64,000 nucleotides of DNA from assembly GCA_963696385.1 (NCBI GenBank), contig CAVOKF010000007.1, positions 1,312,001 through 1,376,000 of the forward strand. The letters run 5' to 3'. The position numbers were made by a program, and so were the translations under genes. Numbering within the stretch: the stretch's first letter is position 1; the number at the start of each line of letters is the position of its first letter. Below the pieces are notes generated by a model, which worked only from the letters and a program-made list of their open reading frames with translations, had not been told where the DNA came from and searched no databases. Below, piece after piece: positions 57,975 through 64,000 of the stretch. Source of the DNA: an uncultured delta proteobacterium (lineage in GTDB: Bacteria > Myxococcota_A > Polyangia > Polyangiales > Polyangiaceae).

Positions 57975-58059
57975 TGGACGCGGTCGTCTCGGAGCGCAGC
58001 CCACAGGAACCCGACGAGCTCGCGTGCGATCGCGATGACGATCTTGTTACTGTTTTTGC
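57975..58059 (-). pseudogene. IS110-family transposase C-terminal fragment
   Basis: KNSNKIVIAIARELVGFLWAAL. Confidence 0.7.
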
Positions 58060-58153
58060 CAAATCGGTTCGCCGATTCAGCGATAACGAACGCCCCTAAG
58101 ACGCGATATGTTTCCGCGCCCGCTTCCGCGGCTCTTCGTCGACCGACGCACTT
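58060..58153 (-). repeat. 110-bp repeat, copy E (left-type), cut by the host intron
   Basis: CAAATCGG...CCCCTAAGACGCGATATGTTTCCGCG...GCTCTTCGTCGACCG matches copy A. Confidence 0.88.
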
Positions 58154-58197
58154 GTCGAGTAGCCCCGGGCGCTTACTGGCCCCGGGGCCCTCGCCGG

Positions 58198-60199
58198 GTA
58201 GGGTCGAGGACTGGCGCGGTGGCGTGCAGGGGGGCCAATCTGTTTCCGTCCCTTTCGGTTGACGGTGCCTCACTTGCCTCTCCATCGCTCCGTTTCCAGT
58301 CCCCGCCTCGTCCAACGGAGCAGGCGGATTTCCCGCACTCCGCTGTCCTGCCAGCTTCGCGCCAAGGTTTATGGGACCTATCGTGCTGGGAGCGCTTTCG
58401 GCATGTCCTGCCGCGGAGCCACTCGGTACCCATTGAAGAGCCCGAGCGTTCCGTAGAGCCATGACCTACTCCACCTCTTCCAGCCGAAACCGGGCAGGTT
58501 CCGGGCACGCATCAGATGTCGCCTCACCTTCTTCTCCACCCAGTCCTTGACGAAGCCGAAGCATCGGCTCGAGTGACCCACTCGAAAGTATTGCACCCAT
58601 CCGCGTAGAATCGGATTGATAATCTGCACCACCCGCTCCACCGGCTGGGACTGAAAACGTCGGAACACGTCCTTGAGCTTGCGCAGCAGCGCCGTCCGTT
58701 TCTTGCGTTGCGGCGTCAAATGCGGACGCCATTCACCGCGGAGACTGCGGATGCGACGAAAGTCAAAGCCGAGAAATCCGAAGCTCTCGTCTTTCGAGAG
58801 GTCCACGAGTCGACTCTTGTCTTCGTTGATTTCCACGTGAAGTTTGCTGAATTCTTCCCGGAGTCTACGGTTGACCGCCTGCAGCAACCAGGCATGGCGT
58901 CGGTAGGCGTCCACGAGGACCACAAGATCGTCAGCAAAGCGCGCATATTCGACATATGCGTACTTGCCTTCGGCCGTGACCTGTTTGGCGCGCTCGAGCA
59001 TCCTATCGACCTCATTGAGGTACAGGTTGCTGAGCACGGGTGAAATTACCCCGCCTTGGGGAACTCCCCTCTTACCGGATGCTTTGAGAATCATCGACAG
59101 GAGAGTCATGACCGCATCGTCGTTCACGCGCTTTGCGACTTTTTCGAGCAACACATGATGCCGAACGTTGTCGAAATAGGCTCGCAAATCGATGTCGAGG
59201 ATCCGGGTCTTATTCCTGACGACGGCCTCCGCTACCCGGCGGACCGCGCCATGCTGCGACCGCTTCGGGCGGTAGCCGTAGGACCCCGGTTGGAAGTCAG
59301 CTTCGAAAATGGGTTCCAGAATGAGCTTGAGTGCCCCCTGGACCACACGGTCGCGGATTGCAGGTATCGAGAGGACGCGAGTTTTGCCCCCATCCTTCGG
59401 TATCGCTTTCCGACGGTTCCGCATGGGTCGATACTGATGCGAGACTAGTTCGTCCCGTATCTGCCCGAGGAACTTCTCGACGCCGCTTGCCTCGATGGCC
59501 TCGAAGGTGACGCCGTCGATACCCGGCGCTCCATCGTTCTGCTTAACCATCTCGTAGGCGGCCTCAATCGTTTCCGTCTTGCAGACGTGGACGTACAGTC
59601 CCCAGAAACGCCAGGTTGGTTCAGCCTTCGCCTTCGCGTATATCCTCCGTCTCAGGTCCTGCAGACTAATAGGCGCCTTTATCATATCGCCCCTGCCTTC
59701 CGTTTCGTAAGAGGAATTACCAACAGCAGGGCCGCTTCGCTCCACGGGCATTACCCCGCTTCGACGCTACTACCGGCCCCTCCGCCACCCTTTCGCCTTC
59801 GGCCGACTTCCCGGGGTTGCCGGTTATACGACCTACCTTTTTCCGTCGATTTCTCGTCGGGGCGAGGAGGGCTTCTCCAGTTTCCAGCGCGTTCTTGTCT
59901 CCGTGCCGTCGCTACCACCCCGCCGGAGCGGTCCACCACGTCAACCAGTTTGTGGTGTGCCGTGCTGCCTTCGCCCTCCGGTTGAGGGCTCGGCCTCCGG
60001 GGTTTCTCCTTTTCGGGGCCACCTCTGCGTTCACTTTCGTTACGGCCCGGGGACTCGCTCACCATCCTTGCGATGGCTTTGTCAGTGGGCTTTAGGTCAT
60101 CGATTTCTCTCCTTCCTACCACTCAAGCTACGAGGCCTCTGGTTCTTAGCCTCGGTGGGACTGGCTCCCACAAAACGCGCCAGCCTTAGCTGGACGCAC
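58198..60199 (-). mobile_element. Group II intron I3 (class F-like), inserted in domain V of intron H
   Basis: 5' GTGCG at 60199; its own domain V GCGGAGTGCGGGAAATCCGCCTGCTCCGTT; long domain VI ending GACCCTAC. Confidence 0.92.
58378..59685 (-). CDS. ltrA: Group II intron RT/maturase of I3
   Basis: [38 protein letters not shown]. Confidence 0.95.
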   Translation of the reverse strand: MIKAPISLQDLRRRIYAKAKAEPTWRFWGLYVHVCKTETIEAAYEMVKQNDGAPGIDGVTFEAIEASGVEKFLGQIRDELVSHQYRPMRNRRKAIPKDGGKTRVLSIPAIRDRVVQGALKLILEPIFEADFQPGSYGYRPKRSQHGAVRRVAEAVVRNKTRILDIDLRAYFDNVRHHVLLEKVAKRVNDDAVMTLLSMILKASGKRGVPQGGVISPVLSNLYLNEVDRMLERAKQVTAEGKYAYVEYARFADDLVVLVDAYRRHAWLLQAVNRRLREEFSKLHVEINEDKSRLVDLSKDESFGFLGFDFRRIRSLRGEWRPHLTPQRKKRTALLRKLKDVFRRFQSQPVERVVQIINPILRGWVQYFRVGHSSRCFGFVKDWVEKKVRRHLMRARNLPGFGWKRWSRSWLYGTLGLFNGYRVAPRQDMPKALPAR

Positions 60200-60793
60200 A
60201 ACCGGACAAGGAGATTTCCACCATCCGGCTCTTCCGCTGAGCTGGCTCGTGGGTTACGTCCCCCAGATTCGGACCTTGATGCGGGGACGCGGGAGAGGAA
60301 GACGCTGCAGAAGCTCGTCATACTTTTCCCAGGTGAGGTGCGCTTGTTGGCTCCGACGGCGGAGCCACTTATACCAAACTCGCCTCGTCTCTTCGGCAAA
60401 CAGAAGCAGACTGCGAAAGTTGCCGCTGATGCCGAAATAGTTGAAGTGACCTTGGATGCGCCTCGTGAGCGCGGCGTGCTGCTCCTTGACCGGAAGGTGT
60501 CGATGGCGACGACACCAGTCCGCGACGGCTTGAATCGACCGTCGTAGGCGCGCACTCCGTGTCTTGCACGTCATTCCCCATCGACCGCTTCGGGAGCGCT
60601 GCCAGTACAGCGTGAATCCCAGAAAGTCGAAGGTGGCCGGACCCTTGCCGCCAACTTGCTCCGCCGGCGGACGCCGGAAGGGCAAGAGGCGGGTCTTGTC
60701 CGGGTGCAGGGTCAGCCCGAAACGCCCCATCCGCTTTCCCAGAACGTTCCATCACACGCTCCGCGTCGTCCTGATGTTCGAATGTCATCACGA

Positions 60794-62672
60794 GGTGAGT
60801 AGGCTGGGGGAATTTCACCCCCAGCCTCTCTCAGAACCGTACTTGAACGTCTCCGCTCATACGGCTCCCATCATCCAACCGCCGGCTTCAGCCCCAGCAA
60901 CTGCCAGTGCGCGAAAAGCCGAGGCTCGCGGCGACCGATGCCTCCGAGCCAATGCTCAGCTCGGCGACGGTGTCGTCGCAGCCTTTTGAATTTCCTCATG
61001 GCCCAACGGACGAGCAATCCGTTGAAGTGTCGGAAGACCGAGTGCAGGGCAGACTTGTAGAACCGACCGTAGTACTGGATCCAGCCCCGAAGGACTGGGT
61101 TCCACATGCGTGCCAAGTCGTCGATGGCCTTGTCGCTCCGCAGAGGAATCCGCCAGCGTCGCATTTCCTGTCGCATCCGCTTCGCCGCGTCGTTGCTGAC
61201 GGCGGGGGTGAAGTTCACGAAGAACTTCCCCCGCCGATTCTTCGACCGGCGAGGACGGAACGTGTACCCGAGGAAGGTAAACTTCTCCTCGGGATAGCGC
61301 CCCTTCCTATCGTCATCTTTGCAGTAGACGATGCGCGTCTTCTCGGGATGCACTTCCAATCGGCAGTGCGCGAGTCGACGCTTGATGTTCGCCAGGACCT
61401 GCTGTGCTTGCTTCTCCGTCTTGCAGTGCGCCACAATATCGTCCGCATACCTCTCGAACGGCACGTCCGGATGCGTTGTGCGCATCCATTCGTCGAACGC
61501 GAGATGCAAGAAGATATTTGCCAGAAGAGGACTCGCTACCCCGCCTTGCGGAGTCCCCTTCGTTCGCGGTACCCGCGTGCCATCCTCCAGTTGCACGGGG
61601 GCTTCCAGCCACCGCTTTACATAGAGAAGGACCCACGGGCACGGCGTGTACTTGCCGACCGCGCGCATTATCAGCGCGTGGTCGAGGTTGTCAAAGAAGC
61701 CTCGGATGTCCAGGTCGATGACCCAGTCGTATCGCCAGCATCGCTGCCGGGTCGCCGCCAGAGCATCGGCTGCAGACTTCCGTGGCCTGTACCCATAGGA
61801 ATCGGGGTGGAAATGCGGCTCCACTTCCGGTTCCAGATACATCTTGACGACCGTCTGGGCGACCCGGTCTGAAACGGTCGGTATGCCCAGACGCCTCTCG
61901 CCTCCGTCTTTCTTCGGTATCGCTACCGACCGAACGGGCGGCGGGAAGTACGTTCCCGACGACATGCGATTCCAAATCTTATAGAGGTTGTTCTTCAGAT
62001 TCTTCTCGAACTCCTCGATGGACTCGGAATCGACTCCGGCCGCTCCGCCGTTCGCCTTCACCCGCTTATACGCTTCCCACACCGCCATTTTGGAAATGCT
62101 ATACGGCTTGGCTTGGCTCGGCGGCTCCTCCCGCTTCCGCGGTTGACCGTCGATACAAGCCGAATGACGCGACCCCCTCGCTCCATCGGGTTTCCCCGGC
62201 TTCTCCGCTACTACGGGCCGCTCCGCCCCTGTGCCTCGCATCGGTACTCTCATCCTCGTGGGGCCTCCACTTGGACTTCTCCCTTAACATCGAGGCGACA
62301 GGTTCCCACGTTCCACACAAGGGCCTGGTCTCGGTTCACGCCACCTTTATGCCGGATGCCGCCCAGGCCAGCTGCAGGTTCCTCCTGGGCTTGTCCCGGG
62401 CAAACGACTCGTCCCGGTTTTGACATCGTTCCTACGCTTTCGACACGTTTCCGGTGGTTCATTCGCTTCGTCTCCCGAGGCCTCACCTGACGCGATCATC
62501 GCCGCGCCTTTTCCATCGACGCGCACCACCCCGGCTCTTTACCGGAGCAGCTCGTGGTGGTTTGGAGCCGGTGCCTGCCGACCGACCCGAGGGGCCTACC
62601 CTCATCCCTTGTGCAGCAAGGCAGCGTTTTAGTTGACCATTTCGGTCTCCCTTCCGCGCCGTCGTGGCGCAC
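60794..62672 (-). mobile_element. Group II intron I2 (class D, RmInt1-like), inserted immediately after the YADD codons of H
   Basis: 5' GTGCG at 62672; domain V GAGCCGTATGAGCGGAGACGTTCAAGTACGGTTC; 3' end CCTACTCACC. Confidence 0.94.
60871..62253 (-). CDS. ltrA: Group II intron RT/maturase of I2
   Basis: KPYSISKMAVWEAYKRVKANGGAAGVD, GTPQGG, RYADD, PRLFAHW. True start probably near 62130. Confidence 0.95.
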   Translation of the reverse strand: MRVPMRGTGAERPVVAEKPGKPDGARGSRHSACIDGQPRKREEPPSQAKPYSISKMAVWEAYKRVKANGGAAGVDSESIEEFEKNLKNNLYKIWNRMSSGTYFPPPVRSVAIPKKDGGERRLGIPTVSDRVAQTVVKMYLEPEVEPHFHPDSYGYRPRKSAADALAATRQRCWRYDWVIDLDIRGFFDNLDHALIMRAVGKYTPCPWVLLYVKRWLEAPVQLEDGTRVPRTKGTPQGGVASPLLANIFLHLAFDEWMRTTHPDVPFERYADDIVAHCKTEKQAQQVLANIKRRLAHCRLEVHPEKTRIVYCKDDDRKGRYPEEKFTFLGYTFRPRRSKNRRGKFFVNFTPAVSNDAAKRMRQEMRRWRIPLRSDKAIDDLARMWNPVLRGWIQYYGRFYKSALHSVFRHFNGLLVRWAMRKFKRLRRHRRRAEHWLGGIGRREPRLFAHWQLLGLKPAVG

Positions 62673-63563
62673 AGTCGTCCGCATAACGCACGAGGTGAGC
62701 TTCCCCGCGCAGACGCGGCTTGACATCGCGCTCGAACCACAGGTCCAATACGTAGTGGAGATAGACGTTGCCGAGTATCGGCGAGAGCACGGACCCTTGC
62801 GCTGCGCCCGTGTCCGGCTCGGCGTATTCCGAGCCGTCGAGCACCCCAACGTGCAAGCACTTGCCAATCAGCCGCATCAGCGACCCATCGGCCACCCGAA
62901 TTTGGAGCATCTCCTTCAGCTGGGTGCGATCCAAGCTGTCGAAGAAGGACACGACGTCGGCCTCCAAAATCCAGCTCACCTTACCCTGATGCGCAATACG
63001 GTCGAGGGCTCGAATGGCGTCATGGGCACCGCGACCGGGCCGGAAGCCGTACGAGCATTCCAAAAAGTCCTGCTCGTATATCGCCTCCAGCACTTCGCGT
63101 AGGGCGTCCTGGACCAACTTGTCCTCGTACGCAGAAATCCCAATCGGCCGTGTCTTGCCCCTTTCCTTTGGGATGTGAACACGCCGGATTGGCTGATGGC
63201 GATACTGCTTCGCCACCAACCGCTCGTGCAGGCTTCGGAGATTTTCTTCCAGGGCCTGCCCGTACTGCTCCTTCGTGACCCCATCCACGCCGACCGCCGC
63301 ATCGTTGCGCATGCGCTTGTCGGCTCGCATCAAGGCGGGCACATCGATAAGATGTGCCAGCGAGTGGAACCGTCCTTCGGGCTCCCTTTTCGCTCGCTCC
63401 ACTACCTTCAATAGTTTCGGTGACATGTCTTCCAACGTCGATGCGTCGGGCATGGTTCCGTCCTGAAGTTCAACTCAGCACGGGCCGCCTTTGCTCGGCC
63501 GGGTCCGGGGTGCCAATCCGTTCCCCGACGTCCACGCTCGTATGCGGCCCTCCGACTCCCCCG

Positions 63564-64000
63564 CTTCAGCGGCGCCTTTGGAGTGATCCACTTCGGGTCA
63601 CCGAAGTGATCCACCCGTCGCGGGGATCGGGGTGTCAGCGGCGGCGGGATCGTGACCCACCCCTTGCTATCGGAAAGGGCGCGCGTCAGGGCCGGTGGCT
63701 CGCACCCGAGATGCTCGGCCGGGCGAAGGGGGGAACCGCCAAGACGCCGGTAGGACTCGCGAGCGCTCGGGCCCGCGGCTCAGTGCGGGAGTCCGGCTAT
63801 CAGAAGGTGTTGTCGTCGGTGGGATCGTGCGCGGGTGGCATCGCCGCTTCGCGGACGGCGTGGCGGTAGCGCCAGAGCGTTTCGCGCAAGGTGGCGGCCC
63901 TGCGGCAGATCGTGTGGGCGAGGAAGACGACAGGGCCTTGGTCGCGTGGCCTATGGAAGTCGTCGATGAGCGTCTGGTGCTCGGCCAAGAGCGCGTCGGC
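63564..64000 (-). mobile_element. Right end of a second, slightly diverged copy of IS21 element B (runs off the window)
   Basis: Reverse-complement match to ~39887-40323, including the accessory ORF tail AHDPTDDNTF. Confidence 0.93.

Follow-up and report, generated by a model that had tools for sequence, protein, structure and literature searches.

The locus analysed here raises the question of how a complete group II intron, I2, came to sit directly behind the active-site codons of the reverse transcriptase (RT) gene of another group II intron, and what it gains from that position. In a preliminary description of the window, that is, the whole 64 000-nt stretch of DNA, I2 was taken for a class D intron whose EBS1 pairs with the Asp-Asp codons of the RT active site, and possibly for a member of a lineage that is specialised for RT genes and avoids its own. 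We conclude that I2 is very probably a group II intron of class D (IIB-like), without an endonuclease, and that it belongs to a known lineage that retrohomes into the R-Y-A-D-D codons of other RTs, mostly those of group II introns, yielding nested introns; the benefit that it draws would be a safe haven and not a weapon.

I2 lies in a nest of group II introns on the minus strand, from ∼63565 to 58154 of the window. It is a complete intron of 1879 nt (62672-60794, minus strand) running from GTGCGCC to CTCACC; the GTGCG at 62672 agrees with the 5′ GUGYG requirement, and CTCACC is the intron end across the family. The Rfam model RF01999 (D1–D4) matched I2 with 91 bits at 62603-62485, and RF00029 (domain V/VI) matched it with 60.1 bits at 60869-60794, where model positions 1–77 were covered. 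The open frame at 62253-60871 (minus strand), the stop of which lies 77 nt before the intron end, encodes a protein (IEP) of 460 aa with RT and maturase parts and without an endonuclease domain, in which PF00078 (RVT_1) and PF08388 (GIIM) were the only Pfam matches. The IEPs of relatives at 75–100% identity are 456–460 aa long, and the C-terminus of the I2 protein, ...EPRLFAHWQLLG, is common to two of the relatives described below, L005 and L044.

The gene interrupted by I2 belongs to I0, another group II intron with a TIGR04416 RT and recognisable D5 and D6, and the two form a twintron. The 5′ part of the I0 RT gene (62673..63453, minus strand; TIGR04416, 5.6e-70) ends in RYADD, and the profile is matched up to position 215 of its 353, which corresponds to YADD. 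A Phe codon is split at the insertion point (T/TC), with a 5′ exon ending in CGT TAT GCG GAC GAC T and a 3′ exon beginning with TC GTG ATG. The 3′ part of the gene (60254..60793, minus strand) is shifted in frame by one extra A near 60747, which is present neither in the paralogue on C6, elsewhere in the source genome, nor in environmental contigs. The window copy of I0 is also truncated on its 5′ side at 63565, where it abuts another repeat, and its domain V is cut by a second intron. The 5′ part of this domain (60200..60231, minus strand), for which the intact domain V of the neighbouring intron I1 offers a comparison, is followed by the intron I3 (58197..60199, minus strand; FADD-type RT, Rfam D1D4-4) and then by the remainder of domain V with domain VI (58154..58196, minus strand), which resembles the I1 D5/D6. 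I3 is one of a lineage whose targets are the domain V helices, the catalytic RNA helices, of other introns, and this lineage may merit a study of its own.

The proposed guide EBS1, AGUCGUU (62409-62403, minus strand), pairs with positions -7 to -1 of the 5′ exon, GACGACU, through six Watson-Crick pairs and one G-U pair, and is located in a hairpin with the arms CCGGG and CCCGG (62396..62417, minus strand). Its partner IBS1, GAC GAC T (62673..62679, minus strand), consists of the Asp-Asp codons and the first base of Phe in the host RT. EBS2, GCGUAG (62437-62432, minus strand), pairs with UUAUGC at -14 to -9 through four Watson-Crick and two G-U pairs, and the corresponding IBS2, T TAT GC (62681..62686, minus strand), covers the last Arg base, the Tyr codon and the first two Ala bases. 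The first nucleotide of the 3′ exon (+1; 60793, minus strand) is T, the second base of the Phe codon, and is the presumed IBS3; the EBS3 of I2 was not located. The placement, coordinates and pairing of EBS1 had been described exactly, and covariation agrees with them; the equivalent sites in I2 itself (GACGATA), I1 (GACGATG) and I3 (GACGATC) had likewise been quoted correctly.

Taken within the window alone, the match between EBS1 and the exon is weak and not compelling. When the first 420 nt were shuffled 2000 times, a fully pairing 7-mer arose in 191 cases and a 6-nt partner for IBS2 in 1648, as would be expected if the complementarity were a one-off coincidence. A competing EBS2 candidate, GCATAA at intron position 321, which lies 3′ of EBS1 and also pairs with TTATGC, was rejected because such 6-nt partners are this common by chance and because covariation in the relative L022 falls on the GCGTAG columns. 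The EBS1–exon match is lifted above chance by three observations, namely its covariation with the exon in relatives, compensatory changes in the EBS1 hairpin, and a paralogue of the locus with an empty site.

I2 has one full copy in the 6.9 Mb source genome, and the empty-site paralogue (C6:18714-22330) is collinear with the flanks of I2 in the window and lacks exactly 62672-60794. With CGTTATGTGGACGACT/TCGTGATG at its junction, this paralogue confirms where I2 begins and ends and that no target duplication is present. I0 and I3 recur on C6 at >99% identity without I2, and the sole change from the occupied to the empty site is C>T at -9, where a G-U pair is still formed. The window copy and the C6 paralogue can be distinguished at 62681, at 62748 and by the extra A near 60747. 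[quoted passage not shown] We considered it as a signal of recombination or of an alternative boundary and rejected this reading, because the exonic copy also occurs at the empty C6 site and is thus native, and because introns throughout the family end in CTCACC.

In a scan of one genome per prokaryotic species, relatives of the I2 protein were encoded in 588 stretches, of which the best 80 were analysed as 78 loci with intron ends placed by BLAST and a conserved 5′ motif. The sampled relatives come from many phyla. Their 5′ exons gave 56 distinct 16-mers, six of which belong to a sister clade with targets of the ...GTAA type and one to L022, and the other 49 accompany NGTCGTT/GCGTAG guides. 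An Escherichia coli/Shigella pINV relative (57% identity), the flanks of which hold no RT, was left out. In L022, which targets an IS3 transposase, the EBS1 columns read CGTTGTT and the exon ends in GACAACG, and the EBS2 columns read ATCCAG and the exon contains CTGGAT, with six of six pairs formed. In the sister clade, the EBS1 columns and exons were TTACGGA and TCCGTAA (L026), TTACCAA and TTGGTAA (L032), TTACCAT and ATGGTAA (L066), and TTATTTT and AAGATAA (L048). Counted by script, the two arms of the hairpin vary through 16 distinct combinations in the family, of which 15 pair fully, and double compensatory changes are frequent. In this comparison of sequences, both EBS1 and EBS2 are fixed by covariation with the exon. 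With guides that covary in this way and a target conserved family-wide, a one-off chance match is refuted, and we assign it practically no probability.

The target rule of the family was read from its unique 5′ exons. A comparison of homolog flanks had been proposed in the preliminary description, and it showed the anticipated enrichment: 43 of 49 exons ended in [YF][AVC]DD codons plus one nucleotide, and the NGTCGTT/GCGTAG guides accompanied 49 of the 56 distinct 5′ exons. The six exceptions resemble the motif: GDADD (L002), RCADD and GTLDD, together with RNAGD from a decayed RT, RYAGD from a gene of the HIT family that is fused to a helicase/PLD protein, and HSAGD from a DDE transposase. Positions -7 to -2 of IBS1 were free of mismatches in all 48 unique exon/guide pairs. 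The third positions of the Asp codons were occupied by C or T in nearly equal numbers (21 and 22 at -5, 23 and 20 at -2) and that of the Tyr codon by C in 25 and T in 18 sites, and each of them lies opposite a guide G, so that either Asp codon and either Tyr codon is accepted. The third position of the Ala codon (-8) is unpaired and can be any base, and -14 was paired in just 19 of 43 sites. As we read these counts, the guides would accept every synonymous spelling of Y-A-D-D. At +1, T was found in 31 of 41 family sites.

Translated 5′ exon parts were available for 52 insertions and translated 3′ exon parts for 57. The best match of the 5′ parts was TIGR04416 in 43 cases, 41 of which end at profile position 215 of 353; four others matched other families (HIT, two IS3 and terminase) and five had no match. 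Among the 3′ parts, 38 matched GIIM or Intron_maturas2, five RVT_1 only, four other families, and 10 none. Judged from these profile matches, the hosts of the family are almost all group II intron RTs, and the host introns are of several classes (Rfam D1D4-4, -5 and -6). At L075, one of the 43 [YF]xDD sites, the intron follows QYADD in a phage terminase large subunit. At L041 it follows RYVDD in a non-intron RT that PADLOC assigns to RT_UG36, with 1.6e-89 for the part upstream of the insertion and 1.8e-61 for the downstream part, which is in another frame. This RT gene adjoins an AbiLi-like gene, and no ribozyme domains of a host intron were present around it. The earlier suggestion that non-intron RTs can be reached is thus supported, by L041 in an RT of the UG36 DRT type and by the published intron B.th.I3 in a retron-like RT (PMC2504315).

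What the insertions do to their hosts bears on a different reading of the lineage, in which it acts as a weapon against rival retroelements, knocking out RT genes at the DNA level and sparing itself through its own YADD codons followed by A, a mismatch at -1. The source genome lends this reading some weight, as the occupied sites there are those with T at -1: two of the three I0-type sites (GACGACT) genome-wide carry I2 or a remnant of it, and none of the seven others is occupied, these being all four I1-type sites, both I3-type sites and the site in I2 itself. The remnant is in a third I0 copy (C6:39569-40482), where just the first ∼17 nt of I2 are followed by unrelated DNA. The earlier statement that only the matching RT is occupied accordingly holds within the window and agrees with the two of three GACGACT sites, but one GACGACT site is empty; moreover, the sites of one genome are duplicates and not independent trials. 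In the family at large, -1 is paired in 29 of 48 unique sites, from which some preference could follow, but the remaining 19 are mismatched there, with G, A and C all represented. Position -1 is best described as a mere preference, and a quantitative preference for pairing there is possible. Insertion into RTs of the intron's own family also occurs: L005, with the EBS1 AGTCGTT, occupies the site GATGATA in a host RT sharing 82% identity with the I2 protein (residues 274–460), the host RT of L044 is 55% identical, and that of L031 is also of the own family. At the level of the family, self-avoidance through the -1 mismatch is thus not supported. The interruption of a UG36 defence-type RT by L041, with the 3′ part of that gene also frameshifted, would suit a weapon, but I2 itself is intact and in sense orientation, and its splicing would restore the host mRNA. 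Weighing these points, we consider it very unlikely that the lineage serves as a weapon, and prefer a harmless retrohoming into RT codons.

This preferred explanation has points against it as well, namely the six of 49 sites that are not [YF]xDD, the single copy of I2, and the near-perfect target that stands empty on C6. The latter two indicate that the window copy may be inactive, slow or newly arrived. They also fit the alternative that I2 in the window is stranded and no longer mobile, its pairing recording a past homing event only, as do the low copy number, with a single full copy and a ∼17-nt remnant across 6.9 Mb, and the decay of the host I0 with its 5′ truncation, frameshift and second intron in domain V. 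On the other side, the 460-aa frame is open and of full length relative to relatives, D5/D6 score 60 bits, and L002, in another genome, encodes a 99%-identical IEP at a site other than that of I2. In addition, 20 of the 24 listed public runs, six of them RNA libraries, have near-identical copies, with half or more of the words sampled from the stretch present in each of the 20. We therefore regard a stranded I2 as possible but rather doubtful. In two of the RNA-library runs, contigs join 60793 to 62673 exactly, and in a third run contigs end exactly at 60794 and 62672, with a depth of 112–279 compared with 4–46 in the exons. These contigs were considered as proof of splicing and rejected as such, given that an empty paralogue exists, that repeats break assemblies at their ends, and that RNA libraries may contain DNA.

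Homing into RT active-site codons is widespread and already in print from 2003–2008, so that I2 adds a clean example to a known phenomenon; the specialisation for RT genes in the preliminary description is thus borne out and at the same time known. Tourasse and Kolstø (2008; PMC2504315) described B.th.I3 of Bacillus thuringiensis sv. israelensis, the IBS2/IBS1 of which are the RT active site (AGGTATGCTGATGACT, RYADD) and the host of which is a retron-like, non-intron RT. In the same work, M.a.I5 (Methanosarcina acetivorans), UA.I3 and P.l.I2 (Photorhabdus luminescens) share this specificity and make twintrons; these RYADD-homing introns are ∼1.8 kb long, B-like and En-minus, and the four show 58–67% homology over the whole ∼1.8 kb. 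Homing of the lineage into these codons was also published by Dai and Zimmerly (2003), as cited in PMC2504315. I2 resembles this set in its size (∼1.8–1.9 kb for both), in its RT-maturase IEP without an endonuclease domain, in its B-like ribozyme, in the site right after RYADD codons with IBS2 and IBS1 over the motif, and in the formation of twintrons, and in its family as in the published set a non-intron RT can be targeted. I2 differs from them in being an additional member, whose bacterial genome is of the soil/peat type and whose sampled relatives come from many phyla.

The class D label suits I2, given the 57.9% identity between its IEP and that of a published class D intron of the matching Rfam D1–D4 family. 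This intron, ‘D152’ of the Alkalihalophilus (Bacillus) pseudofirmus OF4 plasmid pBpOF4-01 (NC_013792.1 52005-50133C), is listed as class D in Table S1 of Toro and Martínez-Abarca (2013), together with M.a.I5-3 (1875 nt), a P. luminescens intron (1882 nt) and a B. thuringiensis israelensis intron (1866 nt, NZ_AAJM01000003). The identity extends over residues 1–458, compared with 38% identity of the I2 IEP to that of the neighbouring intron I1, both introns match RF01999, and their lengths are 1873 and 1879 nt. At its published boundaries, D152 follows CGTTACGCGGACGATT (RYADD plus T) and has the EBS1 GAGTCGTT; the intron that harbours it is likewise of group II (D1D4-5), and the host-gene cell in the Table S1 row of D152 is empty. 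D152 and I2 differ in the class of the host intron and in phylum. The kinship of I2 with M.a.I5, UA.I3, P.l.I2 and B.th.I3 is suggested by one other published class D member together with the shared target, size and domain make-up. An element that Toro calls ‘B.th.I3’ (pBMB67, group g2) briefly hinted that the lineage is not class D; this was rejected, since it is a different element from the B.th.I3 of Tourasse, which is class D. Class D IEPs are described as having a class-specific C-terminal extension (Molina-Sánchez et al. 2010, as cited in PMC3552965).

Two further systems are instructive by comparison. RmInt1 and RmInt2 of Sinorhizobium meliloti, the class D prototypes, are En-minus like I2, and their retrohoming is biased to the lagging-strand template; their targets are IS elements (ISRm2011-2 and ISRm17), unlike the RT genes of I2. 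The head-to-tail double insertions of RmInt2 reported in PMC4615759 resemble tandem arrays that we observed in the I2 family at L008, L012, L013, L017, L058 and L032, as well as at L080, which lies on a complete S. meliloti plasmid; 698-nt ORF-less copies are part of some of these arrays. The internal junctions of these arrays pair poorly with EBS1, so new copies most likely re-enter behind the same 5′ exon, as reported from experiments on RmInt2 and EcKTE56.groEL. The twintrons of Thermosynechococcus elongatus, as presented by Mohr et al. (2010; PMC2882425), likewise involve an intron adapted to a conserved site in the ORF region of another intron, but they are CL/IIB1 and insert between the two initial ATGs of the ORF instead of at YADD.

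Taken together, I2 would choose its target by RNA-DNA pairing, with EBS2 GCGUAG reading (N)UAYGC at -14 to -9 and EBS1 AGUCGUU reading GAYGAYN at -7 to -1, and with +1 usually U. By analogy with the literature on En-minus class D introns, I2 would then reverse splice into DNA at replication forks and use the nascent strand as primer. A target that is both harmless and conserved, and that is found wherever there are retroelements, would offer the lineage a safe haven. This would accord with published nested cases, which their authors read as harmless perpetual homing sites (Zimmerly and Semper 2015), the Methanosarcina nests among them being described as a perpetual homing site (Zimmerly and Semper 2015; Poole 2006).

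The value of I2 as a discovery is small; it lies in a well-resolved case in which both guides are fixed by covariation, a filled and an empty site occur in one genome, and the tolerance of the pairing can be given in figures, with freedom at the wobble positions and at -1. The additions to what was known are one site in a UG36 defence-type RT and look-alike sites in two other genes, one of the HIT family and one for a phage terminase. A broader reading, to which we give a low probability, is that the guides may read a peptide motif and not one DNA word, with a G at each two-fold pyrimidine wobble, a gap at the four-fold Ala wobble, and +1 on the U that is common to all hydrophobic codons. Any YxDD polymerase gene could then be entered, including defence RTs such as UG36, and together with the domain V-homing lineage of I3 such introns would form a guild of ‘intron-hunting’ introns that may measurably shape the turnover of retroelements and RT-based defence genes.

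The intron I3, an element of ∼2003 nt with an FADD-type reverse transcriptase (RT) and an Rfam D1D4-4 structure on the minus strand (58197–60199), was found to be inserted in domain V of the group II intron I0, the host whose RT gene is also split by the class D intron I2. The host domain V, encoded on the same strand, is thereby divided into two parts that flank I3 (60200–60231 and 58154–58196), with the insertion lying in its 3′ strand immediately after GAGCCGGAUGGUGGAAAUCUCCUUGUCCGGUU. Two relatives of I3 from public sequence data (loci L010 and L068) were likewise inserted in domain V, and the same placement was seen for 14 of the 47 unique 5′ exons of I3 relatives among the metagenome loci L084–L163. 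EBS1, the guide loop that pairs with the 5′ exon, reads AACCGGA in I3, and within the I3 family this loop covaries with the exon (L090, L103, L096/L101, L131, L121 and L122). Our literature search, which did not reach two key papers, turned up no description of domain V as a homing target of bacterial introns.

I0 is bordered by repeats on both sides. Next to its truncated 5′ end lies a repeat sequence, at least 437 nt long (63564–64000), that contains the inverted repeat GGATCACTTCGG...CCGAAGTGGATC and has copies with 95–99.8% identity on contigs C3, C4, C5 and C7 of the genome, and a ∼95-nt repeat (58057–58153) with dozens of genome-wide copies at 78–100% identity lies immediately 3′ of the I0 end. 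Around I2, the 11-nt sequence CTCACCTCGTG is present as two direct copies, one within the 5′ exon (62689–62699) and one spanning the junction of the I2 end and the 3′ exon (60789–60799); we judged this repeat coincidental and rejected it as a recombination or alternative-boundary signal. The I0 RT in the window is also frameshifted by a single additional A at 60747, which is missing from the paralogue on contig C6 and from public-run contigs, including a DNA contig with I2. This base reflects either a mutation in the strain or a mistake in the assembly.

A sister clade of the I2 family (L026, L032, L048, L066, L071 and L072), with intron-encoded proteins ∼61–64% identical, has an EBS1 of TTACNNN and is inserted after ...GTAA/ATAA in AT-rich surroundings; no RT gene was found near these insertions. 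Within the I2 family itself, one member lies inside an RT_UG36 (DRT-type) gene, which it interrupts after the RYVDD motif (L041, 765–4409), where the 3′ part of the gene resumes ∼30 codons later in a different frame and an AbiLi-like gene follows downstream. A triple nest with three consecutive D5/D6 matches was found in L005 (2084–5253), in which an I2-family intron occupies the YADD of a second I2-family intron that itself lies within the YADD of a third RT.

Head-to-tail arrays of two to four I2-family copies were found in L008, L012, L013, L017, L058, L032 and L080, the last on the S. meliloti plasmid pMl3, with zero exon bases between neighbouring copies. Among the array copies were ORF-less derivatives of 698 nt, one each in L012 (1386–2083) and L013 (1189–1886) and two in L017 (3958–4655 and 4656–5353). 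These arrays are consistent with the tandem retrohoming that has been published for RmInt2 and EcKTE56.groEL.
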